A stretch of 63,934 nucleotides of DNA, filler included, from an uncultured Methanosarcinales archaeon (GCA_964630685.1; 4 parts of 4 records of this genome joined end to end with filler, not necessarily neighbours in it); one strand, 5' to 3'. Counted from the first letter of the whole stretch, positions 1 to 61,952 are shown. Notes: generated from the letters alone by a model not told the origin. Numbers and translations are program-made.

Positions 1-751
1 CTTTGATATCTCTTTCAAGATTTTCTAATTTGGTTACACCAAAACAAGTTGTTGCTATCAATGCTGTAGCAATTAATGCTCCTTTAGCAGTTGTTTTCCA
101 ATCTTTTTTGATTATTTTTTCTAAATCTGAATTATTGATTTGTCTTTTCTTTTTTTCAAGGTACTTTTTTTGTAACCAAGAATTTGATTTTAAAAGTTCA
201 TAATCGATTCCTTTTTGTTCAAAATCCAATAATTCTTTTTCTCCACCAAAATATTTTGTCAAGTAATGACCTCTAGTGGTTGGAGTGATTTTATGTTTAA
301 TATTATGATATTGTTTAGTGTTTATTTTTCCAGAAGAGTATAATTCTATGAGTGTTTCAGCATGTTCTCTTCCAGAGAGCAAATCTCGTTCAAATTTTTT
401 GTATTCTTTTTTTGAAAGTTTGTTTTCATTGGTTGTGAATTTAAAAGAATTAGGATTGATTTTTTGAGTTTTTGATTTAATTGCTGGAGGAATTTTGTAT
501 TCTCGATTACCTTTAGGAATTCCTTCAGCTAAAGGTAGTTGTTTTGAGAATAAAGACAATTCTAATTGATTCTTTGTTTGAGGTGCTTTTGTTTCTTGAG
601 GTTCTTTATTTTGAAGATATTTAACATATTTGAAAATATTATTATCCCAAAATTTACATTCATGATGATCTAGTTCTTTTGAATCTAGCATCTTCTTATA
701 AATTTGTTCCATGTGAGCGATGCTCATGCTATCTAGTTCTTGTTTTTCCAT
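1..751 (-). CDS. Hypothetical protein, 3'-truncated by window edge (~250 aa visible, hydrophobic segment near the visible end)
   Basis: Manual translation from ATG at 751 (MEKQELDSMSIAHMEQ...GALIATALIATTCFGV...) stays open to the window edge; AT-rich promoter-like spacer upstream; absent from the ORF track because it has no stop. Confidence 0.75.
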   Translation of the reverse strand, partial: MEKQELDSMSIAHMEQIYKKMLDSKELDHHECKFWDNNIFKYVKYLQNKEPQETKAPQTKNQLELSLFSKQLPLAEGIPKGNREYKIPPAIKSKTQKINPNSFKFTTNENKLSKKEYKKFERDLLSGREHAETLIELYSSGKINTKQYHNIKHKITPTTRGHYLTKYFGGEKELLDFEQKGIDYELLKSNSWLQKKYLEKKKRQINNSDLEKIIKKDWKTTAKGALIATALIATTCFGVTKLENLERDIK

Positions 752-823
752 TTGATATAGAATTAAGTATTATTTACTACTTAGTAATGAATAGTTTGAT
801 TATTTATAAATCTTTCGTTTTAT

Positions 824-2170
824 TTATTGGATTAGTGTGATAAAGATTGGTGAGTTTGTTAAGGTGATTTCAGAAGAATCTGTTGTTTTTTCTTGTCCTA
901 AGTAGTTTGTTATTTTTACTGTTCCTTTTATTTCAGAGTCTAAAGGGGTTGATTCACTTTTCCAAACAACATAAACTGGATTTTTGTCTTTAAAGAGATA
1001 TTTGTATTGGTTGTTTTTTATTTCTGTTACTTTTGTAAATCCATCTAATTTTTTGATTAATATTTTGTAAGTGTAAAAAGATTGTTTTTTTTCATTTGAT
1101 TCTGTTAATAATCCCGTATGTTCAAATAAGTCGTTTGGGATTTCTTCAAAATCCCAGTCAGATAGAAACCAAAAAATCTTGTTGTATCCATTGTTGAATA
1201 AAATTGTAAAATATTTTATCATATCTTCTGCTTGTTTTTCTTCTGTTGATCCGAGTTCCCATACACCCCATTTAGGATTTAAAGTTGCAGAAGGTAAACC
1301 AGATTCTGTAGAGATTAATTCTTTTCCGGGACAAATTGAGTTCCATTGAGTGTTGTAATTTTTTAATTTTTGAGAGGCTAACCCATTTGGTAAAATATGG
1401 GCATCTATAAAATCAAAATAAGGACAAATTGTTTGAATAGTGCTTTTCCATCCTGTTAATTCATTTAATTCTTTATTGAAACTTATCCCAATTTTGCAAT
1501 CAGGACAGTTTGATTTAATTTTTTCATAAGATGTTTTGACCATGTTCACATAATCTTGTTTTGTACCTTCCCAAAAATCTAAATCAACTTCATTCGCAAC
1601 TTGCCAATATTTTACAGAGGGTAAACCTTTCATTAAATAGTCTAGATATTCTTCATAAATTGTTTTCTCTTGTGGACTATAATCTGTTTTAAAATCAGGT
1701 TGGATTGTTGGACTTTTAGTTGTTGTAAGAATTGTTACAATTAAATTAAGATTTGAGTTGTATGTAGAGATTCCTTGAATCTTTGTTTTATTAGGATATT
1801 TATTGCAATAATAAATGCCTTCTGAACACGAACAATCTGTAAATTCTGTTTCTATACAACAGCTTTTGCAATCCATGATGCTTGAAGGTTTTCCTTTTTT
1901 GATTATAAACCATCCAGGGCTTTCAGATAACTCTTCTCTAACGTAAATATCTCCCAATTCTTTTATGTAAGGTATTGTTTCTTTAGGGTTTTTTCCTGAG
2001 ATATGAATTCCAAAGTGACTCTCTTTGGGAGATTCTTGTTGAGGATTACAGAGAGCTCGTTCTTTTGAGTTTATTTTTTTATCTTGGTTTAAATCACAAG
2101 AATCGTAATTTGAGACACACCCAACTATAAATATGAATAGTAGGACCAAGTAAATTAGATTTTTGTTCAT
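824..2170 (-). CDS. Secreted/lipid-anchored glycoside hydrolase (clan GH-A TIM barrel, GH39/GH5-like)
   Basis: Signal peptide ending FIVGC; YWQVANE acid/base motif, DFIDAH, ISTESG nucleophile motif; small DLNQDKKIN EF-hand/dockerin-like loop. Confidence 0.7.
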   Translation of the reverse strand: MNKNLIYLVLLFIFIVGCVSNYDSCDLNQDKKINSKERALCNPQQESPKESHFGIHISGKNPKETIPYIKELGDIYVREELSESPGWFIIKKGKPSSIMDCKSCCIETEFTDCSCSEGIYYCNKYPNKTKIQGISTYNSNLNLIVTILTTTKSPTIQPDFKTDYSPQEKTIYEEYLDYLMKGLPSVKYWQVANEVDLDFWEGTKQDYVNMVKTSYEKIKSNCPDCKIGISFNKELNELTGWKSTIQTICPYFDFIDAHILPNGLASQKLKNYNTQWNSICPGKELISTESGLPSATLNPKWGVWELGSTEEKQAEDMIKYFTILFNNGYNKIFWFLSDWDFEEIPNDLFEHTGLLTESNEKKQSFYTYKILIKKLDGFTKVTEIKNNQYKYLFKDKNPVYVVWKSESTPLDSEIKGTVKITNYLGQEKTTDSSEITLTNSPIFITLIQ

Positions 2171-2218
2171 TATAAGGTGTTAGGTTAATTGAGTTTATAA
2201 AAATATTCATTGATTAGA

Positions 2219-2551
2219 TTATTTTTTATGTTTAATATTGAATATTTTGTTTAAGTGAGTTTTTACATTATTTTCAAGGTGGGGGTACTCACAATTACTA
2301 CAATCCCAGATTTTTTTAGAAGGTAATTTTTTTGAATAAGTCCATTTTCCATTAGGATTATCAATTAAACAACCACCTTCTTGATTATCTGTGTCGTAGT
2401 TAGGACAATAACATAAAAAACAGTTTAAATTATCCATATCATGACAAGGAATTTTTTGTTTATAACACATACATTCAGCTGGGTGATTGGTGCTTCTAGT
2501 TTCATAGTTATATTCTTTAATTATTTGGTTGATGTGATTTTCAAGATTCAT
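2219..2551 (-). CDS. Cysteine-rich small domain (zinc-finger-like) protein
   Basis: PCHxxxxLNCxxCYCP...GGC...IWDCSNCEYPH pattern; start moved to ATG 2551 (MNLENH) because the longer ORF runs into the repeat region. Confidence 0.7.
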   Translation of the reverse strand: MNLENHINQIIKEYNYETRSTNHPAECMCYKQKIPCHDMDNLNCFLCYCPNYDTDNQEGGCLIDNPNGKWTYSKKLPSKKIWDCSNCEYPHLENNVKTHLNKIFNIKHKK

Positions 2552-2823
2552 TTTTAAAAAATAATCTAATTCCTTAATGTATTTATTTAATTTTGAAAGT
2601 TTAATAATTTTTTGTTTTTTTATTAATTGGGAAGATTCAACATCGCGATAATTGCTGTTAAATACCCCGACGACCAACGGGAGGAGAGTTCAACGTGGTC
2701 GACTGACCGAAGGGAAGGAGAAGTTGAATTCTTACGTTACAGCGATATAGGCGAAGCCGTACGTTCAGTTTAGGGTGTGGCTGTCAGTTTACACATTAGT
2801 TAGTTCTTAGAAAAGGGTCGCCT

Positions 2824-3807
2824 CTACATCTGGATATTTGGGCAGAAATTGTATTTATGAACTTGATAAATACTTAGTGCAGAATAATCTTTTAAGATGT
2901 CATTAAATGTTGTTTTAATGTCCATCATTATTTCTCTAAATTGTTCGGCACTTTCTACTTCTAGATCAATTTCAAATTCCCAAGGTCCAAGAGATTTTAC
3001 AATATAGATGATATTGGGTTTTCTTCTACAATATTCTCTTAATGTTTTCTCTCTTTGTTCTGAAATGTTTCTGAAACCTATCAAAACTTTGTAATGAAGA
3101 AAAGGATATTTTGATTCATTCGGAACGATGTTATAATGTCTTATCACGCCAGATTTTTGTAATTTCCTAATTCTCTCGCCTACTGCGTCAGCACTTAATT
3201 TAATTTCATGGGCAATATCAACAGCTGTATTTCTTGAATTTTCTCCCAACATTAACAGAATTTTCCAATCATATTTATCCATCTTAACTGGAGAAGGGAC
3301 AGCACCAAAAAATGATTCTCTATATGAACTTGCTTGTTTTTTGTGAATAAGATAATCACGAATAAAATAATCTCCTCTGATGATTGTTGCAATTTGTCTA
3401 TCTGCTATATATTCTCCAAATTTTTTATCTAATTCTGTTAATGTTTTGTCAAGAAATTCCATGTTTTTTGCCCATGTGCCAAAAGCTAAATCAAATCTCC
3501 CATCACAACTAGCAATCCAAACAACATTTGGATGATTTTTAAGAAAATCTATCAATTCTTTTTCTTTTCCACTATCAAGATTTTGTAAACGTAAAAAATT
3601 CTTGTGAACTGTAAAACCTAATTTTGAGATGTCAATAACTGAATAGAAGAAAGAAATGATTTTTTCTTTGATTAATCTCTTAATCCGAAATCCGACAACT
3701 TGCTTAGATAATCCTACTTTTTTGGCAATTTCTGAATTGGACTGTCTTGAATTAATATCTAGTTGATAGAGTATTTTCCTGTCTTTTAAGTCCAATTTTA
3801 CTGCCAT
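2824..3807 (-). CDS. Lrp/AsnC-family regulator, tandem-duplicated (2x HTH + RAM)
   Basis: LDLKDRKILYQLDINSRQSNSEIAKKVGLS and a second MDKYDWKILLMLGENSR..IAHEIKLS HTH; GxxD motifs in both RAM domains. Confidence 0.9.
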   Translation of the reverse strand: MAVKLDLKDRKILYQLDINSRQSNSEIAKKVGLSKQVVGFRIKRLIKEKIISFFYSVIDISKLGFTVHKNFLRLQNLDSGKEKELIDFLKNHPNVVWIASCDGRFDLAFGTWAKNMEFLDKTLTELDKKFGEYIADRQIATIIRGDYFIRDYLIHKKQASSYRESFFGAVPSPVKMDKYDWKILLMLGENSRNTAVDIAHEIKLSADAVGERIRKLQKSGVIRHYNIVPNESKYPFLHYKVLIGFRNISEQREKTLREYCRRKPNIIYIVKSLGPWEFEIDLEVESAEQFREIMMDIKTTFNDILKDYSALSIYQVHKYNFCPNIQM

Positions 3808-3908
3808 ATTGTTATTTAATCTTTATTAGTATATAAATTTAGCGATTTTGTAAAAAATATGGCTAATAAGTTTAATATACTCTTAACTACTCTTATGTTA
3901 CTACTAAG

Positions 3909-4913
3909 ATGGAAAGAAAACTAGGAATAACAAAAAAGCTAGAAGACATGGCAGAAGAAGGAGGTTTAGATAGTTCTGTGGCTATGCTAAATCTACCTAG
4001 TGCTAATTATTGTGAAAAAAGAGCAGAAAGAGTTTATGAGGATGGAGGATTACAGCAGTCATGTTATGGTTGTGTTACTCAAGGGATTAAATCAAAAGAT
4101 ATTATTGATATTGATGAAGTAAAAAGAGTTATTGACTTCTTTGCTGAAAATTATGATACTAAGTTTATTACTATCAATGGTCGTGGTGATCCATTTAACC
4201 CTAGATTAAGTGCAGATAATTTAGAAAAGATTCGTTATGCACACGACCAATGGGGAATACAAGCTTATGTTTTTACAGCGGGAAATAATCTTGATGATAG
4301 GACTTGTCAACTATTAGCTGAAAATGAAGCTAATGTGATGATTAGTTTATTTGGAAATAGGTTCATTGATGCAGATTTTTTTAATGGAAAAGAGTACCCT
4401 GCAATGCCTAAACCATTTCAGAACCAAGCACAAATAGCTGAGAATCTTAGAAGGTTAATTGAAACTTACAGAGGAAGTGAAAGACAACCAGAAGAAGGAA
4501 CAACAAGAATTGGAATTAATTATGTTGTCTCTCAGAGTGATTTAGTTGATGGTGGTGCGAAGATTAGGGCATTAAAAAAAGCAGCCAATGATAATGGATT
4601 ATTTTTTGTAGCTAATACTGATTTCCAAAAACGCCCAGATGATGCAGTACAAAAAGCTTTTGAACAAATGGCAAATCAATATACTGATTTTAATTTGAGA
4701 CATAGCACGGCAGTTAATGGTCAGTGTCAGATGGGTGCAGGTTCTTCAGCAACAGTAGATTTTGATGGGACTTTATTACGTTGTCCCTACATGGATTCAT
4801 CTGAAGGTAATGGGAGATTTAATATTTTATCAGGCGAGAGAATTAGAGAAGTAGTTAGTGTTTATATGGCGGATAGATCATTTCCATGCGTGATGAGAAA
4901 ACATCAGAAATAA
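3909..4913 (+). CDS. Radical SAM-like protein with atypical CX16CX2C motif and SPASM/twitch-like C-terminus
   Basis: C-EKRAERVYEDGGLQQS-CYGC; INGRGDPF (GGEP-like); FTAG; C-terminal CxxGxxxxxVDxDGxLxxCP. Confidence 0.7.
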   Translation: MERKLGITKKLEDMAEEGGLDSSVAMLNLPSANYCEKRAERVYEDGGLQQSCYGCVTQGIKSKDIIDIDEVKRVIDFFAENYDTKFITINGRGDPFNPRLSADNLEKIRYAHDQWGIQAYVFTAGNNLDDRTCQLLAENEANVMISLFGNRFIDADFFNGKEYPAMPKPFQNQAQIAENLRRLIETYRGSERQPEEGTTRIGINYVVSQSDLVDGGAKIRALKKAANDNGLFFVANTDFQKRPDDAVQKAFEQMANQYTDFNLRHSTAVNGQCQMGAGSSATVDFDGTLLRCPYMDSSEGNGRFNILSGERIREVVSVYMADRSFPCVMRKHQK

Positions 4914-5032
4914 GAGGCGACCCTGTTTTAGTTATAGTTTTTACATTCTATTGTTGTGACAAGTCACACAAAGCCACACCTGTTTTTATCGTATTAGTAA
5001 GAATTCAATTGTATTTAACATTAGGAAATCCT

Positions 5033-6837
5033 TGTTAAACTCTCCGTTAGGATTGATTTTTAGTGCAACGATGCCGAAGGCAAAAAATCAAAGTCGAATT
5101 TTCACTTATATAATTTAGAGCGTAGCGAGTGTAACTGTCCGAAGGACTAAAGAGTTGGGGGCGTTCAATCTAGCTCGTTAGAGCCTTAAAGAACAAAAGG
5201 ATTGTAAGATGGCATGAATTAAAACCGCTAAGTTTTTATTATACATCAACTTAAGGATAATTATGTTAAATCAACCATTAATTAAATTTAATTTTTTTGA
5301 AGATAGTTTTGAAGAAGAACTAAATAAATTTAAAGATATTATTAAGAATTTAAATAATAGTAATGTTCATTATTCTAGTTTAAAGAATTTTCCCCCTTGC
5401 ATTATTGATAAAATAATATCTAAGGCAGATTCTAATACTCTGTATCTATCAAGATCAAATGCAATTTTGAATAACAATCTTTATTTTGGTGAGAATTTTA
5501 AATCACTAAATCGATTATTCTTAAGATCGCCTTTTATCTCCAATAAATGTAAAAATTGTATTCATTTTAAAAAAAATATTTGTCGAGGTTTATTGAATAA
5601 AAAGTTTTTAGAAAAGAAAGAACAAATTATTAAAAAAATAGGCTTAAAAAGATATAACGCGGTTAAAAGCGACTATGAAAATGGTTTATTTGTTTTTGGC
5701 TCTGTTTGTAATAACTCATGTAGATTTTGTGTCGATAAATTTGCTCCAGAAGAAGTAGTAAAGAAAATTCCATTTTTGTCAGAATATGATATTATTCATT
5801 TTTTACATTATCTATCAAAAAAAATTCAATGGGTTGGGACAAGTTATCATTGTGCAAGTGGAGAATTTTTTGATCATCCTAAATTTTTCAAGATTATGGA
5901 ATTTTTGCCATTTTTTATGTCTTCTAAATCCTGGCTTTTTACTAATTGTATTAGTCTTGATGAAGATATGCTCAAGATAATTAAGAAGAAAAACTTGAAA
6001 TTAATATTTTCTATTCATACTTTAAATGATGACATTAGGAAAAGGATAATGAATTATAAAGAAAATTTTAAAATTAAGGATAAACTAAAATTAGTAGATA
6101 AATACAATATTCGATATGAATGTTGGTTTGTTCCATTAAAATTTCTTATCAAAAGTGGTGATACAGATAATTCATTGAACTATCTCGTTAATTTTACAAA
6201 TACCAGAAAAATATCATTTAGCACTTCTTCTCCTAGCAAATATATTCCAGAAGAGATGAAAAAAGAGCTTTTAGTAGATAATTCATTAGTAAATAAATTA
6301 ATGAGGTATAATCATAAGATTAATTATGTTGATAATGGAGCAAAAGATATTCATAATCATAAAAGTGAAGATAATTCTTTTAAAAAGATTGCTGATCATA
6401 TAAAAAAGATTTGTAATGATAAAGGGTTGTTGGTACTAGCACCGAAAAGATCTTTTGATATTTTTAAAAAGGAATTTAGGAATAATATAAATATTGAGAT
6501 TAGGAAAGTAAATTCTTTTTTAGGTGAGAATATCGATATTTCAGGAGTTCTTACAGTAAAAGATTATGTTGAAGTAATTCAAAAAAGTAATCCTGGATAT
6601 GATTATATTATTATTCCCAAAAATTCTTTTGATATCAATCTAGATGATTTTATGCTTAATAGTATTAATGAGATCTACCATTATAAAAATAAACCATTGA
6701 TATTACTTTGATTTCTTGACTTTTGAATCTAATAAATTCGACCGAAGGGAGTGTATATGTGCGAAGCACCGCCCCCAACTCTTTTTTTGGTTCTTTTTTT
6801 AAAAGAACATTTAATGAAAATTCGATTGAGTTTAACA
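5033..6837. mobile_element. Putative gene cassette 2 bounded by three nested inverted-repeat pairs (radical SAM cargo)
   Basis: TGTTAAACTC 5033/GAGTTTAACA 6828; TCGAATTTTCA 5094/TGAAAATTCGA 6815; AAAGAGTTGGGGGCG 5149/CGCCCCCAACTCTTT 6770. Confidence 0.6.
5263..6711 (+). CDS. Radical SAM Fe-S protein with DUF512-like C-terminal domain
   Basis: CNNSCRFC motif, SGEFF, extra CKNC..C cluster; C-terminal NSFLGENIDISGVLTVKD...IIIPKNSFD resembles DUF512. Confidence 0.7.
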   Translation: MLNQPLIKFNFFEDSFEEELNKFKDIIKNLNNSNVHYSSLKNFPPCIIDKIISKADSNTLYLSRSNAILNNNLYFGENFKSLNRLFLRSPFISNKCKNCIHFKKNICRGLLNKKFLEKKEQIIKKIGLKRYNAVKSDYENGLFVFGSVCNNSCRFCVDKFAPEEVVKKIPFLSEYDIIHFLHYLSKKIQWVGTSYHCASGEFFDHPKFFKIMEFLPFFMSSKSWLFTNCISLDEDMLKIIKKKNLKLIFSIHTLNDDIRKRIMNYKENFKIKDKLKLVDKYNIRYECWFVPLKFLIKSGDTDNSLNYLVNFTNTRKISFSTSSPSKYIPEEMKKELLVDNSLVNKLMRYNHKINYVDNGAKDIHNHKSEDNSFKKIADHIKKICNDKGLLVLAPKRSFDIFKKEFRNNINIEIRKVNSFLGENIDISGVLTVKDYVEVIQKSNPGYDYIIIPKNSFDINLDDFMLNSINEIYHYKNKPLILL

Positions 6838-6946
6838 TCGGGCCCTGTTATATTCGTTTCCCATACGAAGTGTGGGAAACCTGCGTCCGCAGAGTTTTTG
6901 GATTACTAATCAATTCGACCGTAGGGAGACTATATGTCCGAAGGAC
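6729..6946 (+). repeat. 41-bp direct repeat pair (6729-6769, 6906-6946) forming double hairpins; third degenerate copy at 5118-5147
   Basis: 35/41 identical; differences include a compensatory stem change (GTGC-GAA-GCAC vs GTCC-GAA-GGAC). Confidence 0.85.
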
Positions 6947-7175
6947 TGGGGAGTCTAGTTCCTTCTAAAGAGCGAATGCGATACATCAAGAACAAGAATC
7001 AAGGGGGAGTTCTTTTTATCAAAGCCGAAGGCTCTTTTAGTTAGTACATTTAGGGGAGTTCCGTTCAATACAAGCGAACACAGTGAGCCTTCAAGAACAA
7101 GAAGAGAGGGGCGTTCAATTTTTACCGAAACTAGATATTTATCACTAAGTAGTAGTTATTAAACGAAACATTTAA

Positions 7176-7198
7176 AAAGTAGTAAATTTTACTACTTT
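7176..7198. promoter_or_regulatory. Palindromic operator overlapping the promoter of the RHH gene
   Basis: AAAGTAGTAAA-T-TTTACTACTTT perfect inverted repeat next to a TTTAAA TATA-like box; extra AAGTAGTA half-site at 7147. Confidence 0.55.
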
Positions 7199-7203
7199 AT
7201 AGT

Positions 7204-7347
7204 ATGAAAATTAAAGTTAGTGTTTCAATAGAAAAGGAATTACATGAAAAGGTGAAGGATAAAGTAGCCGTAAGTATATTCAGAAATACTAGCCATCTTG
7301 TAGAGCATGCTGTTGAATTATTCTTAAAGGAGGCTCAAAATGAGTAA
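7204..7347 (+). CDS. Small ribbon-helix-helix (CopG/Arc/MetJ-like) regulator, 47 aa
   Basis: Manual translation MKIKVSVSIEKELHEKVKDKVAVSIFRNTSHLVEHAVELFLKEAQNE; beta-strand then helix-NxS-helix pattern; overlaps next start codon. Confidence 0.8.
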   Translation: MKIKVSVSIEKELHEKVKDKVAVSIFRNTSHLVEHAVELFLKEAQNE

Positions 7348-8885
7348 TTTGCAAACTTTAGAGGAAATTGCAAATAATCTTGGAAATATGTTTAGGGCGA
7401 GCCATCCAGCTACACCAGTTTCAATAGACATTGATGGAAAAACAGCTGAACAGATTAAATTAGAATTGGAAGCATTGGGTGAAGATTCAGAGCAAAATAT
7501 AGTCTATATAAATGAAAGAATAGCCGAGATAGAAAAACTAACTGAAGATCCTTCTGATTTGAGTTCACCAACAGCTATTCAGAATGCAGCAAGAATTATC
7601 TCTGATGTTAAAAGAACAAAATCAAATATAAATGTTGGTGGAGAAACTGCAAAACAGTTAAATGATGATTATAAACAAAAATTGTTATTTGAATCAGGTT
7701 TTGAAAGCTATGAAGATGTTTCTACACAGATTGATAATCTATCATCTCAAAGAGCTAATCTAAGACAAAAATTTCTTGGAGGTCTTAGGTTTAAAGGTCA
7801 AATCAAAGATTTGGGTTCCAAAATTAATTCACTCTATGATCTTTCTCACACTCAACATGATGGAGTTAGAATTGGAGAACTTGGATACTTAGAAACTAGA
7901 CGTTTTGAGGATGCACAAGGCAAGTTATTTGGTAGATTTGCTAGCCAGTTATTTGATCAATATGATCAATTAGCAAGCCAATTAGTTAGAACCGATGATG
8001 AACAAAAAGCAGTTGCCCCTGCAATCCTTGAATCATTAACTGATGATTATGTCTCTAAATATTTTATGTCAAGAATTGATGCAGAATTAGAAGCAAATCA
8101 AAAACGAGATGATCATTACGGCAGAGAGAAAGTTGCAGTTTTAAGTGATCCAGCTCTTGTAGGTGAAGCATTATCTGTTCTTAGAGAAGGATTGAATCAA
8201 TCTCATGTTTTATGGGCAGGACAATCATATACTGAAGAACAAGAAGAAAGAGCAAGAGAATTGGATTCAAGATTAAGTGCTTTGCCCTATGAATTGAAAA
8301 GTATTGTTGAAAGAGGCATGATTAGAGGTAACAAAACTACAAATGATGAATTTGCAGAATTTGCAGATTATCTGACTCAAGTACCTATTGATATTCAACG
8401 AAGAGAATTATTGACATCACTTTCAACAGCTAAAGAACATGTATTGAGTGCTATATCTGATGATGATTTACCATATTCAATTACTGGTCAAAGATGGGAT
8501 CTTGAAAGATCTGCTAGCAACCTTGAACACTCATTAAAATCAACTGAGAAATCTGATTTTCTTAAAGAATTGGATATGGAAAAATGGGATGCTTTCAGAA
8601 ATAATGCAGGTGTTAGAGAAGTCTATGGTGCTGGAGCATTAGACTCATTTAATGATTTGATTAGGGGAGAAGTTTTTGATAGATTATTAGTAACACCAGA
8701 ACACACAAATGAATCAGTTGGGCTTGGTTACAAAGCTCTTTGGTTTAAAGATGCAGACTCAGTTGCCTATAACCTATTAAATTTCTGGAGAGAACCAGGA
8801 CATTCAGGAGAGCAACCCTTTTTATCAACACACTCAAGTTCAGAAAATACTCTTGGTGCACAATATATTGCATCATTAACAGATG
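7340..8885 (+). CDS. Hypothetical helical/coiled-coil protein, truncated at contig end
   Basis: Long ORF with AAGGAGG RBS; no motif recognised. Confidence 0.75.
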
Positions 8886-8985
8886 NNNNNNNNNNNNNNN
8901 NNNNNNNNNNNNNNNNNNNNNNNNNNNNNTTAATTAATTAANNNNNNNNNNNNNNNNNNNNNNNNNNNNNNNNNNNNNNNNNNNN
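8886..8985. other. Artificial contig linker
   Basis: N-run/TTAATTAATTAA/N-run (stops in all frames). Confidence 0.98.
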
Positions 8986-22396: not shown

Positions 22397-25010
22397 ATGA
22401 AAAAAACCATCACATTCTTACTCGTTGTGTTATTATTAGTTTCTCCCGCTGCTTATGCTTTTAGTTTTTCTGATATTGGTAATTTTTTTGAAAATTTATT
22501 TGGTCCTGCCGATATAACTGGTATGGCTAAAGGAAAAGGAGGGGCACCCCCAAATCCTTGTGGTGATGGAACATGTAATGCTAAAGGAGGAGAAAATTGT
22601 GCTACTTGTGCAAAAGATTGTGCATGTGATTCTGGGTATAGTTGTAATAAAGGCAGTTGTGTAGCCGACCCTGTTTGTGGAGATGGAACAAAAGATGAGG
22701 GTGAAGAATGTGATGATGCTGATTTAAATAGTCAAACGTGTGTAACTCAAGGTTTTGATGGGGGTAATTTAGCGTGTGATGTTAGTTGTGGGTTTGATAC
22801 ATCTAGCTGTTATAGTTGTGGTGATGGAACAGTAAATGGGGATGAAGTTTGTGAGGTTGGTGATACTCAATCCTGTACTTCTAGTGGTTATGTTGGTTCT
22901 CAATCCTGTTTAAGTGATTGTAGTGGTTGGGATGCTTGTGTTCCTACTGAAAGTTGTGGTGATGGCATTGTTCAAGCCCTTGCTGGAGAAGAATGTGATG
23001 GGAAAAACTTAGATGGAAGAACTTGTAAAGGATTTGGATATGATAAGGGAAGTTTAGATTGCACTAATAAATGTAAATTAGATAAATCTGGGTGTAGTAA
23101 TTATCAATGTGGAGATAAAAAGGTAGAAGGTAATGAAGAGTGTGATGATGGTAATTCTGATAATACTGATGCTTGTTTGAATGACTGTACTGATGCTGTG
23201 TGTGGTGATAGTAATGTTTGGAAAGGGGTTGAAAATTGTGATGATGGTAATTCTGATAATACTGATGCTTGTTTGAATGACTGTACTGATGNNNNNNNNN
23301 NNNNNNNNNNNNNNNNNNNNNNNNNNNNNNNNNNNNNNNNNNNNNNNNNNNNNNNNNNNNNNNNNNNNNNNNNNNNNNNNNNNNNNNNNNNATTCTGATA
23401 ATACTGATGCTTGTTTGAATGACTGTACTGATGCTGTGTGTGGTGACGGGTTCATATATGTGGGTGTTGAAAATTGTGAAAATTGTATTTCTGATGTTGG
23501 ACGTTGTAATGATTATGATACTCTTCCAACTATATCTATTAAAGGTGGAGGAGATATTAGTTTTGGTACTAATAATATCCTCATTACAATCTCTGATGAT
23601 ACTGGATGTAGTGTTGCTTTTTCAAGATTAGATGAATTAATTGCAAGAAGAGGTAAAACTATTGAACAAAATGTTAATTTAATTGAAAAAATGATTTCTT
23701 GTGAAAGTGCTAATAATTGGATTGCCGGATATGTTAGGGAGCTTCCTGCTGGAACTTATAATCTAGTAGTTACTGCAATAAATAATGTAGGTGCAAGTGG
23801 AGCAAGTGTTAGTTTTACTATTACTGCTAGCCCCATAACAATAACTTCTCCTGAATCTGAGATTATTTATACAGATATAATTACACCTCAGGCAACAGTA
23901 AGTGTAACTGATGGTAGTAGTTGTAGTTACTATGTAAATGATTGTACTCAAAATTTTAATTGTGATGATGGGCTAAATGAAGAAGATTTATTAGTTGCGT
24001 TGGGGGAGGATTGCTTTAATGATAAAGAGAATAAATTCAGCGTTACTACAACAATAGGTAAAGAATCTAAAATTGCAGGGGTTTATTTTTCATATATGAA
24101 AACTCAAAAAGAATATGAAAGATTAGTTAAAAGAGCTAGTGGTATGAGGATGTCTCTTGAGACAGAAGATATTCTTCTTTATCCTACTGTTGGAGGTAGT
24201 GATGGAAAAAGAGTTAATCTTAGTGAAGGATCTGCTAAAGCTTTATTGGCTATGAATATGGCAAAAGGAGTGGTACCTGAAGATTCATATAATAAAATTA
24301 TAGAAATTTTGGCTAATAAGGACGAAATAAAACAAGTTCTTGCAGGAATAGATTCTGCTGGATGGGGTGATGGCGCTATATTAGGTGTTGCCCCTGCTGC
24401 TCAAATATCGGGCGAAAATACAAAAGAATTTAAGGCATTTGTTTCTCATACTCAGGGAAGTACTAATACTTATGAGATGTTGGAAGAAGTCCATAACTTA
24501 GAAGTAAAATATACAAACAATATGCAGCAAGTTGGAACTAACTTAGCTATTGTAACTTTCCATAGTGACCCTATAACTATTGAATTGGAAGATGGGGAGT
24601 GTATGGCTGTAGATCTTAATAATGATACTTTTGAAGATGTTATTGCATGTTATAATTCTGAAGACGGTGTTACTGTAAATAATATTGTGTTGATTGATGA
24701 AAATATGGAGCCTGCAATAGATGAAAGCACAACAGTTATTTCTCCTGTTACTTACACAACCGAAAATACTTATGTTACAACAGTGGATTCAAAGAAATTG
24801 GAAAAGGAATTTTTGAACAAATTATCAACTGGTGAATATTCTGTACCTTTAGAGGGATTAGATATTAAAGGGATAGAAAAAATGATAATAAAAAAATATT
24901 CTCCTTTCTTGGTTGTGATTACATTGTTTTTGGTTTATGTGGTTAGTGTTATTTCTTTTTCAGGAAGAGTTAAACCCCTAAAGAAGAAAACGCGAAAACG
25001 AAAAAAATGA
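22397..25010 (+). CDS. Cysteine-rich repeat (DUF4215/Myxococcus-type CGDG...EECDDGN) surface protein spanning an N gap
   Basis: Signal peptide, CGDG/ECDDGN repeats on both sides of gap 23292-23391, C-terminal TM; the two track ORFs are probably one gene. Confidence 0.75.
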
Positions 25011-37534: not shown

Positions 37535-37634
37535 NNNNNNNNNNNNNNNNNNNNNNNNNNNNNNNNNNNNNNNNNNNNTTAATTAATTAANNNNNNNNNN
37601 NNNNNNNNNNNNNNNNNNNNNNNNNNNNNNNNNN
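37535..37634. other. Artificial contig linker
   Basis: N/TTAATTAATTAA/N. Confidence 0.98.
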
Positions 37635-44568: not shown

Positions 44569-44664
44569 ATTGAATATTTATCATTATTGGATATAAATAC
44601 TTTTCTAATCTATCCTTAATTAACCGTTACTTTTTTAAATAAATCACCTATTTAGGGCTAATAT

Positions 44665-44805
44665 GGGCCCATAGCTCAGCCTGGCTAGAGCGATTGGCTC
44701 TTAAATTGTGTCTGCATACTTTGTAGACAAAGTCTAGAAACCAATAGGTCGCGGGTTCAAATGTCTGGTTAAAATATAATCAGTCTGAAAGTCCCGTTGG
44801 GCCCA
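44665..44805 (+). tRNA. tRNA-Lys(CTT) with two introns (anticodon loop ~44704-44739; T-loop ~44762-44791)
   Basis: GGGCCCA/TGGGCCC acceptor stem; ATTGG-CTCTTA...ACCAAT; GCGGGTTCAAA...TCCCGT with bulge-helix-bulge (TTCA/TGAA helix, AAT and AGT bulges). Confidence 0.88.
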
Positions 44806-44929
44806 TTTCATAATCAAATAAAGCGAGGAGAGTTGGTGGGACCTCTAAGGTTTTAGCCTTAGTGTGTCGCACATCCTTTTGACCAGATTTTTGAAAAAAT
44901 CTGCGTTGGGCCCATTAATTTAACCAAAA

Positions 44930-47469: not shown

Positions 47470-48435
47470 TTATGAAAAATAATTGGAAGGTAAGTAATTG
47501 AACGTTTCTTTATTTTTTACATCTACAATCTCAAAATCAATAATTAGCTCTTCAAATCTCTCTCTTAATTCACTCATAAAATCATCAAAGCTATTTTCTT
47601 TCAATGACTCAAAATTAATCACAAGATCCCAACTTCCAAAAGTTTTTACCACCGAAACTACAGAAGAGTTTTCTTTACAAAAATTAGTCAACTCATCCTC
47701 TATTTTGAAATCATAAGCAGAATATTTTAATAGAATTTTTTTATTAAGTATACCTAATTTATCACAATCAAGAATTGGCTCAAATTTCCGTATAACCAAT
47801 CTTTTTTTCAACGATTTAAGTTTAGATGAAAAAGTTTTGAAGCTCGTCCCACTAATTTTGCTCAATTCCTTTAATTTAGCACTCGGTTTCTCTAACAATG
47901 CCTTGCAAACAAACTTCTCAGAATCACTAAAATTAACTGGAGCTCTATCACCTCCAATCACTTTATCTTCCCCTTCTCTAGCCCAAGGATTAAGATACTG
48001 CCTACCAAATTTACGAATCACAATAACAGTACAAATGTGGTTATCAGTAATATCTTCTTTATGTTTGGAGATAAATTTCTTTAAAGTTTTATTAAAACTA
48101 GAAGGATTTTGGGATAAAAACATAGCACTAATATCCAATTTTCCCTGAAGTGTTTCAATCCATACAACCTCTGGAAGATCTTTCAAATTCTTAAGTAATT
48201 CTGAAGAGCCATTTTTTTTGTGAGATGTTCTAAACAACACAAGATATCCATTAAAATCAAATTTTGCATAATCAAAAACAGTCGCATAACCCTTTATTTG
48301 TCTTTTTTTATTCATTGATTTTAAGGTATAACTGACCCTTTGTTCACTCGTCTTTAAACGCTTAGCTATCTTTGATAAAGTAGTTCTACTGTTTTCGTCG
48401 AGAAAGTGCAATATTCTATAAATAACCTTAGTCAT
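47470..48435 (-). CDS. Lrp/AsnC-family regulator, tandem-duplicated
   Basis: ILHFLDENSRTTLSKIAKRL HTH; second HTH; GxxD RAM motifs; divergent from the following operon. Confidence 0.88.
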   Translation of the reverse strand: MTKVIYRILHFLDENSRTTLSKIAKRLKTSEQRVSYTLKSMNKKRQIKGYATVFDYAKFDFNGYLVLFRTSHKKNGSSELLKNLKDLPEVVWIETLQGKLDISAMFLSQNPSSFNKTLKKFISKHKEDITDNHICTVIVIRKFGRQYLNPWAREGEDKVIGGDRAPVNFSDSEKFVCKALLEKPSAKLKELSKISGTSFKTFSSKLKSLKKRLVIRKFEPILDCDKLGILNKKILLKYSAYDFKIEDELTNFCKENSSVVSVVKTFGSWDLVINFESLKENSFDDFMSELRERFEELIIDFEIVDVKNKETFNYLPSNYFS

Positions 48436-48595: not shown

Positions 48596-49699
48596 ATGAA
48601 AAAACCAAAATTCGCAGTAATAGGAGCCGGCTGTGGCGGACAAACCTTTGCAGGACATTTAGCATCTGAAGGTTATGATGTAAATCTTTACAATAGATCC
48701 CCAGAAAAGTTAGGTAACTTAAATGAAGAAAAAAAGATTTCATTAGAAGGAATTCTAAACCAAGAAGGAAAAATAAATATTGCAACAACAAACTTAAAAG
48801 AAGCAGTTCAAGACAGAGATATAATTATGGTTGTAACCACAGCAACAGGTCATGAAGAAATATCTAAAAACATAACGCCTTACCTTAAAGGGGGTCAAAC
48901 AATCATACTAAATCCTGGAAGAACATTCGGAGCATTAGAATTCTTAAATAATATTTATCAACAAAGACCCAATTTAGACGTTACAGTTGGAGAAGCAAAC
49001 ACATTACTTTATGCAACAAGAGTTACAGAGCCAGGAAAAGCTAATGTTTTAGGGGTAAAAGAAGAAGTTTCACTATCAACATTACCTAGTTATAGGACAG
49101 AAGAAATTGTAGGTCAATTAAATGAGTTTTATCCATCATTTAAAGCATCAGAAAATTTCTTAGAAACTAGTGTAGGAAATATTGGGGCAGTGTTTCATCC
49201 TTCAATCATGTTATTGAATCATGATAAAATAGTAAACAACGAGCCTTTTGAGTTTTACACAGAAGGAGCATCAGAATATGTTGCAGGATTTATGAATGAG
49301 ATAGACAAAGAAAGACAACAAATCGCAAAAAAATTAGGAACACCAATACCCACATTAGAAGAATGGTTAGGAAGCAGATATAATTTAGAACAAAAAGAAC
49401 TACACTTAATGCTTAAAGAAAATCCAGCATATCAAGGGATAATGGCGCCAACCACAATGGACCACAGATATATTTTTGAAGATGTCCCAACAGGATTGGT
49501 TCCACTCGCACTTACAGCAAAATCATTAGGAGTTGACACTCCCTATATGGACCATTTAATTAATTATTCAAGTCAAATACACAACAAAAATTATTGGGAA
49601 GAAGGGCGAACACTCAAAAAAATAGGTCTGAACAAAGATTATCTTACAGAACAATTAGGCGAGATTATACATCAAAATCATTATGTAGGGGTATCATGA
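48596..49699 (+). CDS. NAD(P)-dependent opine (octopine/nopaline) dehydrogenase family protein
   Basis: VIGAGCGG Rossmann motif; LNPGRTFG; NIGAVFHP; HRYIFEDVPTGLVP. Confidence 0.9.
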   Translation: MKKPKFAVIGAGCGGQTFAGHLASEGYDVNLYNRSPEKLGNLNEEKKISLEGILNQEGKINIATTNLKEAVQDRDIIMVVTTATGHEEISKNITPYLKGGQTIILNPGRTFGALEFLNNIYQQRPNLDVTVGEANTLLYATRVTEPGKANVLGVKEEVSLSTLPSYRTEEIVGQLNEFYPSFKASENFLETSVGNIGAVFHPSIMLLNHDKIVNNEPFEFYTEGASEYVAGFMNEIDKERQQIAKKLGTPIPTLEEWLGSRYNLEQKELHLMLKENPAYQGIMAPTTMDHRYIFEDVPTGLVPLALTAKSLGVDTPYMDHLINYSSQIHNKNYWEEGRTLKKIGLNKDYLTEQLGEIIHQNHYVGVS

Positions 49700-56082: not shown

Positions 56083-56207
56083 TGCGGGTGCGGGGATCTG
56101 AACCCCGGACCTCTAGATTTCGCGCTTTAGTTTGGTCATCAGCAAATCATTGCCTCATTACTCAAAGATATGAGTCTAGCGCTCTAACCAGGCTGAGCTA
56201 CACCCGC
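56083..56207 (-). tRNA. tRNA with CAT anticodon (elongator Met or Ile2), 50-nt intron at 37/38 (56119-56168)
   Basis: GCGGGTG/CACCCGC acceptor stem; CTAGA-CTCATA|intron|A-TCTAG; lacks initiator GGG/CCC stem. Confidence 0.88.
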
Positions 56208-56310: not shown

Positions 56311-56779
56311 CTAAAGATCTGTTGGTTCTTCTTCTTCGTTTTCAGTAGAATCATCTGAATCTTCTTCTGAATCTTCTTCTGAATCTTCTTCAGCATCATC
56401 TGAATCTTCTTCAACATCATCTGNNNNNNNNNNNNNNNNNNNNNNNNNNNNNNNNNNNNNNNNNNNNNNNNNNNNNNNNNNNNNNNNNNNNNNNNNNNNN
56501 NNNNNNNNNNNNNNNNNNNNNNNAAGAACTTTCTTCTTCTGAATCTTCAGCATCATCTGAATCTTCTTCTGAATCTTCTTCAACATCATCTGAAGAACTT
56601 TCTTCTTCTGAATCTTCAGCATCATCTGAATCTTCTTCTGAATCTTCAGCATCATCTGAATCATCATCTGAATCTTCTTCTCTATCATCTGAAGAAATTT
56701 CTTCTTCTGAGTCCTCGCTAGATTCTTCTTCGGTTGATTCTTCTTCTTGGGTTTCTTCTTCAAAATGTTCTTCTTCCAT
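56311..56779 (-). CDS. Highly acidic low-complexity (D/E/S) protein spanning an N gap
   Basis: GGAGG RBS; MEEEHFEEE...(DSEE)n...EEEEPTDL; gap 56424-56523 lies within the repeats. Confidence 0.7.
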
Positions 56780-57365: not shown

Positions 57366-57461
57366 TGGACTGGGCGGGATTTGAACCCGCAGCCTCTCGA
57401 TATTTGGAGTCATTTCTAACTTTGCCAACCGAGCGATCTAACCAGATTGAGCTACCAGCCC
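57366..57461 (-). tRNA. tRNA-Ala(GGC) with ~21-nt canonical intron
   Basis: GGGCTGG/CCAGTCC acceptor stem with G3:U70; CTCGG-TTGGCA|intron|A-TCGAG. Confidence 0.9.
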
Positions 57462-61852: not shown

Positions 61853-61952
61853 NNNNNNNNNNNNNNNNNNNNNNNNNNNNNNNNNNNNNNNNNNNNTTAA
61901 TTAATTAANNNNNNNNNNNNNNNNNNNNNNNNNNNNNNNNNNNNNNNNNNNN
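61853..61952. other. Artificial contig linker
   Basis: N/TTAATTAATTAA/N. Confidence 0.98.

Follow-up and report, generated by a model that had tools for sequence, protein, structure and literature searches.

Three comparatively GC-rich spacers in a 63,934-base stretch of DNA assembled from an uncultured archaeon labelled Methanosarcinales (GCA_964630685.1) carry a cluster of small hairpins on one strand, and we examined whether they could be the ends of mobile gene cassettes. The whole stretch, hereafter the window, consists of joined contigs, and distances and strand relations across the joins are meaningless; the joins are marked by linkers of the form N44-ttaattaattaa-N44 (8886-8985, 37535-37634, 61853-61952) and by N100 gaps (23292-23391, 56424-56523). 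The hairpin spacers A (2640-2823), B (4914-5262) and C (6712-7339) stand out from a background GC content of 30%, and all three lie on the contig at window 1-8885, whose end cuts the last of three candidate cassettes. The genes, arms and junction cores of this contig are listed in Table 1.

Table 1. Genes, cassette arms and junction cores along the array-bearing contig (window positions; HTH, helix-turn-helix; ORF, open reading frame; RHH, ribbon-helix-helix)
Feature	Position	Strand	Basis
Cys-rich, zinc-finger-like protein	2219-2677	-	gene calls and domain scans
Junction core J0, TAA-ttgc-TGTTA, left edge of the array	2649-2660 (TGTTA 2656-2660)	+	fits the 56-junction consensus
5′ arm, cassette 1	2656-2825	+	hairpins and pairing segments
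Double Lrp/AsnC-HTH regulator, cassette 1 cargo	2824-3807	-	Pfam and NCBIfam scans
Radical-SAM-like protein, cassette 1 cargo	3909-4913	+	Pfam and NCBIfam scans
3′ arm, cassette 1	4913-5030	+	three pairing segments
Junction core J1, gaaatcct/TGTTAAAC	5025-5041 (TGTTA 5033-5037)	+	conservation with other loci starts here
5′ arm, cassette 2 (X)	5031-5200	+	hairpins, D1, pairing segments
Radical SAM + DUF512 protein, cassette 2 cargo	5263-6711	+	Pfam
3′ arm, cassette 2 (Y)	6712-6843	+	D1 at 6740-6769, h2′, h1′, terminal box
Junction core J2, GTTTAAC-atcgggccc-TGTTA	6831-6850 (TGTTA 6846-6850)	+	start of L069 synteny
5′ arm, cassette 3 (commonest type)	6844-7125	+	RNAalifold, 20 homologues
Small ORF, RHH-like by eye only, cassette 3 cargo	~7206-7343	+	ORF reading
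Large protein, cassette 3 cargo	from 7340, cut at 8885	+	L069 homologue of 1313 aa

An earlier note, made from the sequence alone, had listed C-GNA-G triloop hairpins and stems with GA opposite GA in these spacers, all on the + strand. Every listed hairpin is present where it had been placed, as judged by reading the sequence, and a script that sought perfect stems of at least 3 pairs around C-GNA-G on both strands of the whole window re-found the C-GNA-G ones at 2750-2758 (ggcGAAgcc), 5072-5082, 5137-5147, 6759-6769, 6936-6946 and 7023-7033. These six are the + strand's full set, all within 2750-7033, while the three C-GNA-G hairpins of the - strand all lie elsewhere in the window. The hairpin at 6856 has 11 pairs including one T·G, which on the opposite strand would be a C·A mismatch. 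The stems with GA opposite GA likewise proved to be as described: a double one at 2668-2686, GAcc-GAA-ggGA at 2705 and 6740, GAgc-GTA-gcGA at 5118 and GAcc-GTA-ggGA at 6917. Their location on the + strand is irrespective of gene direction, as both genes beside spacer A are encoded on the - strand and both beside spacer B on the + strand. The strand bias that the earlier note had asserted stands as clustering within three spacers on a single contig rather than as evidence of a genome-wide bias. Hirao and colleagues are said to have found d(GCGAAGC)-type GNA mini-hairpins and tandem sheared G·A pairs to be specially stable in DNA.

The arms of cassette 1 are complementary to each other. Its 5′ arm, downstream of J0, is of a type (CCCCGACGAC...GGAGGAG) that recurs after CYTGTTA in loci L110, L069 and L062 of the scan described below. 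Besides the double tandem-G·A hairpin, it contains GACC-GAA-GGGA (2705-2715), GGC-GAA-GCC (2750-2758) and three segments that pair, in reverse order, with the 3′ arm: 2808-2825 with 4913-4930 (18 nt), 2724-2735 with 4997-5008 (12/12) and, between them, 2773-2782 with 4972-4981, a 9-nt match read from the sequence. The listed TTG start of the Cys-rich gene overlaps J0 and the first hairpin; the true start is probably an internal Met at ~2551, so that 2552-2655 would be the left flank of the array.

Cassette 2 shows the same arrangement. Conservation with L045, L056, L032, L107 and others begins at J1, and arm X is 95% identical to its counterpart in L056 and 90% to that in L045, where the cargo differs. 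The arm contains TGCC-GAA-GGCA (5072-5082), a segment h1 (within 5084-5111), a copy of the double-hairpin unit D1 (5118-5147) and a segment h2 (5149-5163). At the other end of the cassette, arm Y carries a further D1 copy followed by h2′ (6770-6784), which is complementary to 5149-5163 at 15/15 positions, and h1′ (within 6809-6833), which pairs with 5084-5111; its terminal box, GAGTTTAAC, lies at 6829-6837.

Cassette 3 starts in J2, and window 6844 ('CCTGTTA') is exactly where synteny with L069 sets in, at 84% over ~2 kb. Its 5′ arm comprises hairpin M1 (6856-6880), CTGC-GTCC-GCAG (6881-6892), h1 (6895-6907), D1 (6917-6946), AGCC-GAA-GGCT (7023-7033), repeated GGGGAGTTC modules and a last segment, GGGGCGTTCAAT (7110-7121). 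We found no partner of this arm in the window, where the contig ends at 8885. In L069, the 1313-aa homologue of the large protein is followed by a matching 3′ arm, and the homologue of the cassette 3 arm pairs with this 3′ arm through four nested helices. Spacers A and C, which flank different genes, share no complementarity.

Reading the sequence further, we noted that the 5′ arms lie upstream of TATA-like boxes, which are placed ~25-30 nt before the starts at 5263 and 7206 and may be promoters of the cargo genes, and that the 3′ arms open with T-runs right after stop codons. Other identities considered for the spacers were rejected. For tRNA halves or split tRNAs, suggested by a GTTCAAT T-loop-like sequence, no tRNA was called in the region and there were no matching stems. 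CRISPR-like repeats (ATTGAAC...) are irregularly spaced and form no array, and the conservation of small ORFs in the spacers (6723-6968 and others) fits paired stems, not codons.

To follow the elements beyond this genome, we used D1, a unit of 30-41 nt made up of the mini-hairpins C-GA-SC-GNA-GS-GA-G and GTSC-GNA-GSAC. Its 30-nt pattern occurs three times in the window, against 0.00 expected from 100 shuffles, and the three copies differ by compensatory changes (GAGC/GCGA vs GACC/GGGA; GTCC/GGAC vs GTGC/GCAC). A scan of a species-representative genome collection with the pattern yielded at least 123 loci; locus-wide counts given here rest on the matches listed. Among these, the D1 loci are mostly in metagenome-assembled genomes (MAGs) labelled Woesearchaeota, Nanoarchaeota or other DPANN, and some are in MAGs labelled Methanosarcinales, Patescibacteria or other bacteria. 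Conservation at the DNA level across D1 loci covers 2647-2730, 5026-5196 and 6721-7115 of the window, and the genes between are not conserved. Rfam 15 gave no match at the gathering threshold except tRNAs in the window and one tRNA only in 12 loci, and nothing credible up to E 10 for window 2300-7500; C/D and H/ACA RNAs, RNase P, signal recognition particle RNA, group II introns and HEARO/omega RNA were rejected as candidates, having no Rfam match. Phage and plasmid collections contained no match to 6721-7135.

A GC-rich, bacterial version of D1 was seen in L016, L027, L040, L053 and L066, which belong to one Verrucomicrobiaceae MAG, and likewise in L035, L036, L074 and L076. In the Verrucomicrobiaceae MAG, the five D1 copies sit at contig ends. 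The bacterial GC-rich D1 is followed by AGCCCGAAGGG and GAGCG..GCGA hairpins, and in L076 a tRNA-like T-arm sequence comes after the D1 element.

At many of the loci, like-oriented copies of the elements are spaced 0.3-6 kb apart (median 1.8 kb), and L003, L031, L045, L063 and L078 carry co-oriented arrays. The plan of a cassette is a 5′ arm of ~100-300 nt, the cargo genes and a 3′ arm of ~100-200 nt. We compared junctions for inverted complementarity and obtained a median best score of 26 for adjacent junctions and 19 for 596 random inter-locus pairs. Scores of 26 or more were reached by 30/56 adjacent pairs, 57/596 random pairs (Mann-Whitney p = 2e-14) and 3/32 non-adjacent pairs from the same locus. 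Nested pairings of the form h1-h2-h3 with h3′-h2′-h1′ were found in L044, L078, L062, L045, L056 and L069. In L033 (226-520), where matched 3′ and 5′ arms are adjacent, the whole site is predicted to fold into one branched hairpin with the core and the M1 and CTGC hairpins at its tip (RNA parameters, -100 kcal/mol; DNA parameters, -58 kcal/mol).

D1 has the same orientation in both arms, and the run that follows it tells the arms apart: D1 followed by a G-run marks a 5′ arm, with the core upstream (56+7 copies), and D1 followed by a C-run marks a 3′ arm, with the core downstream (11 copies), while run type and core side were discordant in 2+2 copies. The core itself has the consensus ttAAtccy/TGTTA(a/t)(a/g)ttc (56 distinct junctions). 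TAA or TAG stands 4 nt before TGTTA in 29/56 junctions and 5 nt before it in 10/56, giving TTAA-N6/7-TTAA; the spacing of the boxes is 6 nt in 29/56 and 7 nt in 10/56, and the arms are only partly symmetric when set against the 11-6-11 layout of dif. The right half of the core is similar to GTTRRRY, the crossover box of integrons. RYYYAAC-like and GTTRRRY-like boxes lie only 4-12 nt apart at the junctions, and some cores are palindromic with a 10-8-10 layout (GAGTTTAACA-N8-TGTTAAACTC). No target duplication was evident at the junctions.

The same arms enclose different cargo. Between arms of the cassette 2 type, the window has a radical SAM gene, L056 a methylase with MjaI endonuclease, and L045 a UvrD-like helicase; the window's radical SAM/DUF512 protein has no homologue in the loci that share these arms. 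From 29 cassettes with matched ends, which we term validated, we collected 63 cargo proteins for a Pfam scan. They include at least five restriction-modification sets (NgoFVII-, AlwI-, MjaI-, HincII- and CfrBI-type enzymes with methylases), helicases, ABC transporters, an HNH nuclease, and Lrp and radical SAM pairs like those of the window; 23/63 had no Pfam match. Genes run in the direction of the hairpins in 42 cases and in the opposite direction in 21 among validated cassettes, and in 86 vs 64 overall. The proteins scanned, 63 from cargo and 36 from the window, included no reverse transcriptase and no RNA-processing enzyme, and a diversity-generating retroelement or retron was rejected on the absence of a reverse transcriptase from these 99 proteins. 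The double Lrp/AsnC-HTH regulator is cargo in the window, L023 and L055, with a radical SAM gene two genes away in L055.

When the 581 ORFs of the flanked loci were clustered, one family dominated: ten tyrosine recombinases, each from a different locus. This XerA-like recombinase is present in 10/70 loci of at least 3 kb among the matches listed, on the hairpin strand in 9/10 and 3′ of D1 in 8/10; a weaker eleventh Xer-like match was found by tblastn in the Verrucomicrobial locus L036. Several of the genes come immediately after a hairpin spacer. Four GTCTGCTTAA(T)-type boxes, one of them inverted, lie upstream of the gene in L031. The two recombinases tested scored best on archaeal XerA (200 and 214 bits) and matched an integron-integrase model in two separate stretches only, skipping model positions ~183-239, so that the IntI insertion is lacking. 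The closest solved structures are XerA 4a8e and 5hxy. The L031 recombinase has thousands of relatives at 65-70% identity in MAGs of many DPANN labels, many of them on very short contigs. Directly upstream of the recombinase gene of L011 (3100-3700, D1-oriented), two tandem gene-less repeats of 278 bp, each starting CCTGTTAGGCGACC, look like empty cassettes or site repeats.

Comparison of D1 copies argued for selection on folding. Among the distinct copies in the matches listed, the variable stem positions were complementary in 125/125 copies for hairpin 1 and 124/125 for hairpin 2; C-G and G-C were both frequent in the stems, although any of the four S/S combinations would have satisfied the search pattern, and all four nucleotides occurred at the N of GNA. 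RNAalifold analysis of 20 homologues of the arm at ~6839-7021 gave 27 pairs, 12 of them with compensatory double changes. The tandem G·A pairs beside C-G were kept while the inner stems covaried, as in CGACGAC...GGAGGAG and C-GA-GC-GAA-GC-GA-G.

Several of these comparisons also distinguished the strands. GCAA or GTAA takes the place of the GNA triloop in some copies, and GNRA loops, like the tandem G·A pairs, occur on the + strand only. Among local hairpins with at least 6 Watson-Crick pairs and one internal mismatch, the single mismatch was G·T in 89 cases and A·C in 30 (p = 6e-8). Minimum free energies were lower for the + strand in 69/94 spacers with RNA parameters and in 67/94 with DNA parameters. 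At more than 250 nt from D1, C-GNA-G hairpins numbered 199 on the D1 strand vs 88 on the other among the matches listed, and in AT-rich loci, outside ±250 nt of D1, 162 vs 42. Whole-spacer thermodynamics was discarded as a strand test, its z-scores being weak and contradictory (-0.8/-1.8; -0.9/-2.4). Together, these tests establish folding on the + strand; they do not settle whether the folded molecule is DNA or RNA. Of the proposal in the earlier note that the spacers are selected to fold as single-stranded DNA (ssDNA) on one strand, the selected fold and its strand are borne out, and the choice of DNA over RNA is not: both parameter sets favour the + strand, and energies do not tell the two molecules apart.

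We hold with moderate confidence that the three spacers are junctions between mobile gene cassettes that an archaeon of DPANN type carries in a co-oriented array, and that their hairpins belong to strand-specific recombination-site arms of an integron-like, Xer-type system. The earlier guess at a recombination signal suits the context, where cassettes meet at a conserved core and a tyrosine recombinase is encoded nearby. The cassette organisation is most likely that of an array kept by site-specific recombination at the core. The loci themselves show the structures with their covariation and strand asymmetry, the arrangement in cassettes with matched ends and variable cargo, and the enrichment of the recombinase; that the cassettes are mobile, that the recombinase moves them and that ssDNA is the folded species we infer. 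Tyrosine recombinases act on folded single strands at the attC sites of integrons and the attP site of CTX phage. Given these precedents, and given that hairpins are only weakly coupled to gene direction, that the 5′ arms precede TATA-like boxes and that the 3′ arms open with T-runs, ssDNA appears more likely than RNA as the folded species.

In the mechanism that we propose, the XerA-like recombinase, whose gene often lies on the hairpin strand at the 3′ end of such arrays, would exchange strands at the core. The palindrome would be centred on the crossover, and integration would split it, leaving its halves at the two ends of the cassette. Since the 5′ arm has segments complementary, in reverse order, to segments of its cassette's 3′ arm, the ends can zip together; re-pairing would give a single strand the form of a panhandle and turn a circular cassette into one long branched hairpin. 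The + strand hairpins and the arm pairing would give the site its shape and its strand and orientation specificity, with the mini-hairpins, above all the D1 present in both arms, as candidates for protein recognition and for fixing orientation. More tentatively, and as a possibility that we would not yet call probable, DPANN archaea and perhaps also some bacteria may share a hitherto undescribed platform in which an 'inside-out integron' with an XerA-like enzyme, its complementary cassette ends of GNA mini-hairpins and tandem G·A pairs folding as ssDNA into the recombination site, shuttles restriction-modification and accessory genes among ultra-small archaea.

Several observations weigh against this reading. 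About half of the adjacent junction pairs (all but 30/56) are without clear complementarity, and in L002, a counterexample, the arms are mismatched. The long-range arm helices have no significant strand asymmetry (G·T 43 vs A·C 29, p = 0.12), and these pairings could be plain inverted repeats of duplex DNA; some cores are palindromic, and for these duplex recombination would therefore suffice, with no need of ssDNA. Folding energies with RNA and DNA parameters are alike and give no separation of the two molecules. Nearest-neighbour models rate the D1 mini-hairpins as weak (-0.3 to -3.9 kcal/mol), and the special stability of GNA and tandem-G·A hairpins in DNA is general background rather than a computed value. 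No empty site or circle junction was found among the compared loci, which thus give no direct sign of movement, and a 1.3-kb indel between L004 and L007, the sole indel seen between close relatives and considered as a cassette gain or loss, was rejected because it lies inside an operon and not at a junction. The link to the enzyme comes from other genomes, because no recombinase is encoded in the 64-kb window and the array contig ends at 8885. Our description of 10/70 as an enrichment presupposes a genomic baseline of about one or two such genes per megabase genome, a figure of general knowledge and not a measurement. Finally, the bacterial and Methanosarcinales labels of D1 loci may be binning errors, which makes the taxonomic range of D1 uncertain.

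Among the alternatives, the likeliest is a structured RNA from the + strand, with the arms serving as ncRNAs (noncoding RNAs) or as parts of read-through transcripts that process or stabilise the message or loop out cistrons by 5′-3′ pairing. GNRA variants, tandem G·A pairs and an excess of G·T (G·U in RNA) are typical RNA motifs, the greater stability of the + strand is seen with RNA parameters, and two thirds of the genes in validated cassettes lie on the hairpin strand. The remaining third lie on the opposite strand, no Rfam family matches, and the 99 scanned proteins included neither a reverse transcriptase nor an RNA-processing enzyme. The 5′ arms, moreover, lie upstream of boxes that resemble promoters, and the 3′ arms open with T-runs. 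An RNA also leaves unexplained why the elements stand at the boundaries of variable blocks and are associated with a recombinase. We consider this explanation unlikely.

A second alternative keeps the recombinase and dispenses with the single strand. Here the cassettes would be duplex modules of Xer/dif type, like the pdif modules of Acinetobacter plasmids, exchanged by double-strand recombination at the core, and the arms would be inverted-repeat accessory regions that bind protein or extrude as cruciforms, with no ssDNA folds. The core is built like a tyrosine-recombinase site: in 39/56 junctions, 6-7 nt separate the TTAA-like boxes, and some cores are 10-8-10 palindromes. The enzyme is Xer-like, and the long-range pairings lack significant strand asymmetry. 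Left unexplained are the + strand asymmetry of the local hairpins, the retention of G·A/G·A mismatches beside covarying stems, and the presence of D1 as a direct rather than an inverted repeat in the two arms. We judge duplex modules to be a decidedly unlikely account of the spacers.

It is more doubtful still that the cassettes are non-autonomous single-strand transposons of the IS200/IS605 kind or palindrome-associated transposable elements (PATEs), mobilised in trans by an HUH-type or other transposase that would recognise subterminal one-strand hairpins at both ends, and inserted beside a TTAA-like target that ends the previous copy. Such elements would account for D1 as a direct repeat near both ends on one strand, for co-oriented arrays and for the lack of evident target duplication. 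The enriched enzyme, however, is a tyrosine recombinase; no Y1/HUH transposase was detected in the 99 Pfam-scanned proteins, although one could be supplied in trans from elsewhere in the genomes, and long complementary arms are not known from IS200/IS605. The refuting case named in the earlier note, ncRNAs of the minus strand with cUUCGg loops, taken here together with c(UACG)g, is highly improbable: 168/250 D1 hairpins have the form of CCGAAGG and CCGTAGG, readable as C(UUCG)G and C(UACG)G on the other strand, and with RNA parameters 4914-5262 scores better on its minus strand (z-score -2.4 vs -0.9), but the other 82/250 are GCGNAGC and cannot form c(UNCG)g, the tandem G·A pairs would become U·C/C·U, G·T would become A·C and GCAA/GTAA loops would become UUGC/UUAC, and the + strand is the more stable in 69/94 spacers despite the UUCG bonus.

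Elsewhere, the window is that of an AT-rich archaeon, with intron-bearing tRNAs, aEF-1alpha, a wyosine enzyme and pyruvate kinase. The tRNA genes at 56083-56207 (-) and 57366-57461 (-) have insertions of 52 and 23 nt in the anticodon region that are typical of archaeal introns, and ARAGORN assigns the latter gene an odd 4-base anticodon. The stretch at 44660-44915 resembles a tRNA interrupted by two or more introns (gggcccatagctcagcctggctagagcg ... ggtcgcgggttcaaat ... cccgttgggccca, then a second ...gcgttgggccca); neither ARAGORN nor Rfam called anything there. A second double-HTH Lrp-like gene (47470-48435) adjoins B12-binding/mutase-like and ATP-grasp genes, and recoding suspected at 48596-49660 was rejected, the region being an ordinary ORF.

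The tiny genomes of DPANN archaea acquire accessory and defence genes in ways that are poorly understood. If the arrays are active, they would represent a second, independently organised means of cassette capture beside integrons, one that uses the housekeeping-type Xer family and a palindrome split between the ends of the cassette. The reading that we favour, if true, would lengthen the short list of systems that read the shape of one DNA strand (attC, CTX attP, IS200/IS605), would explain why such regions break metagenome assemblies, and would make D1 plus the core a searchable signature for mobile defence genes in uncultivated archaea. The regular C-GA-...-GNA-...-GA-G hairpins would also be a natural test bed for non-canonical DNA and RNA motifs.

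Among the closest known systems are integrons. Like the arrays described here, they are co-oriented arrays of accessory and defence cassettes whose sites conserve a strand-specific fold rather than a sequence; they have a GTTRRRY boundary box, to which GTTAAAC, GTTAAGT and GTTAAAT correspond here, and an Xer-related tyrosine recombinase beside the array. The attC site has the layout R″-L″...L′-R′, with crossover at the G/TT of R′ at its 3′ edge, and consists of one palindrome of ~55-140 nt between cassettes. In the arrays studied here, by contrast, the halves lie at opposite ends of a cassette, in arms of 100-300 nt with a conserved D1 unit, and the recombinase, which scores best as XerA and is without the IntI insertion (two proteins), is encoded in the array's own direction at its 3′ end rather than upstream and divergently. 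Archaeal integrons with classical attC sites have been reported (Ghaly et al., 2022; PMC9668308), and the Nanoarchaeota attC tested there is an ordinary hairpin of ~60 nt, unlike the elements here; none of six checked contig prefixes occurs in its supplementary workbook. Searches of the openly accessible full-text literature gave no description of such a cassette system, and by a term search a 2021 review of archaeal tyrosine recombinases names no cassettes, hairpins, single-stranded DNA, DPANN or Nanoarchaeota and touches on integrons only in passing. The system would work like an integron and yet is none, having no IntI and no attC between cassettes, and it seems to be previously undescribed.

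Other systems share single features with the arrays. Archaeal XerA/dif, whose 28-bp dif site has two 11-bp inverted arms around a 6-bp spacer (Cortez et al., 2010; PMC2958812), offers a likely parallel in its Xer-family recombinase and in a geometry to which that of the partly symmetric cores comes close. The pdif modules are likewise accessory modules bounded by Xer-type cores. Unlike in such Xer-dependent elements, the cores here are direct and not alternating, and the long structured arms have no known counterpart. CTX phage offers a site, attP(+), that exists only as folded ssDNA and integrates at dif; there are no phage genes here. IS200/IS605 elements and PATEs have subterminal hairpins of one strand at both ends, act in a strand-specific manner and leave no target duplication, but the present elements have long mutually complementary ends and a tyrosine recombinase, with no Y1 transposase among the 99 scanned proteins. 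At the level of the motif, the hairpins match the d(GCGAAGC)-type hairpins of DNA in having C-GNA-G loops with all four nucleotides at N and G·A/A·G steps flanked by C-G. Those hairpins are isolated, in phage origins and elsewhere, whereas here they are modules of a conserved architecture that extends over 100-300 nt.

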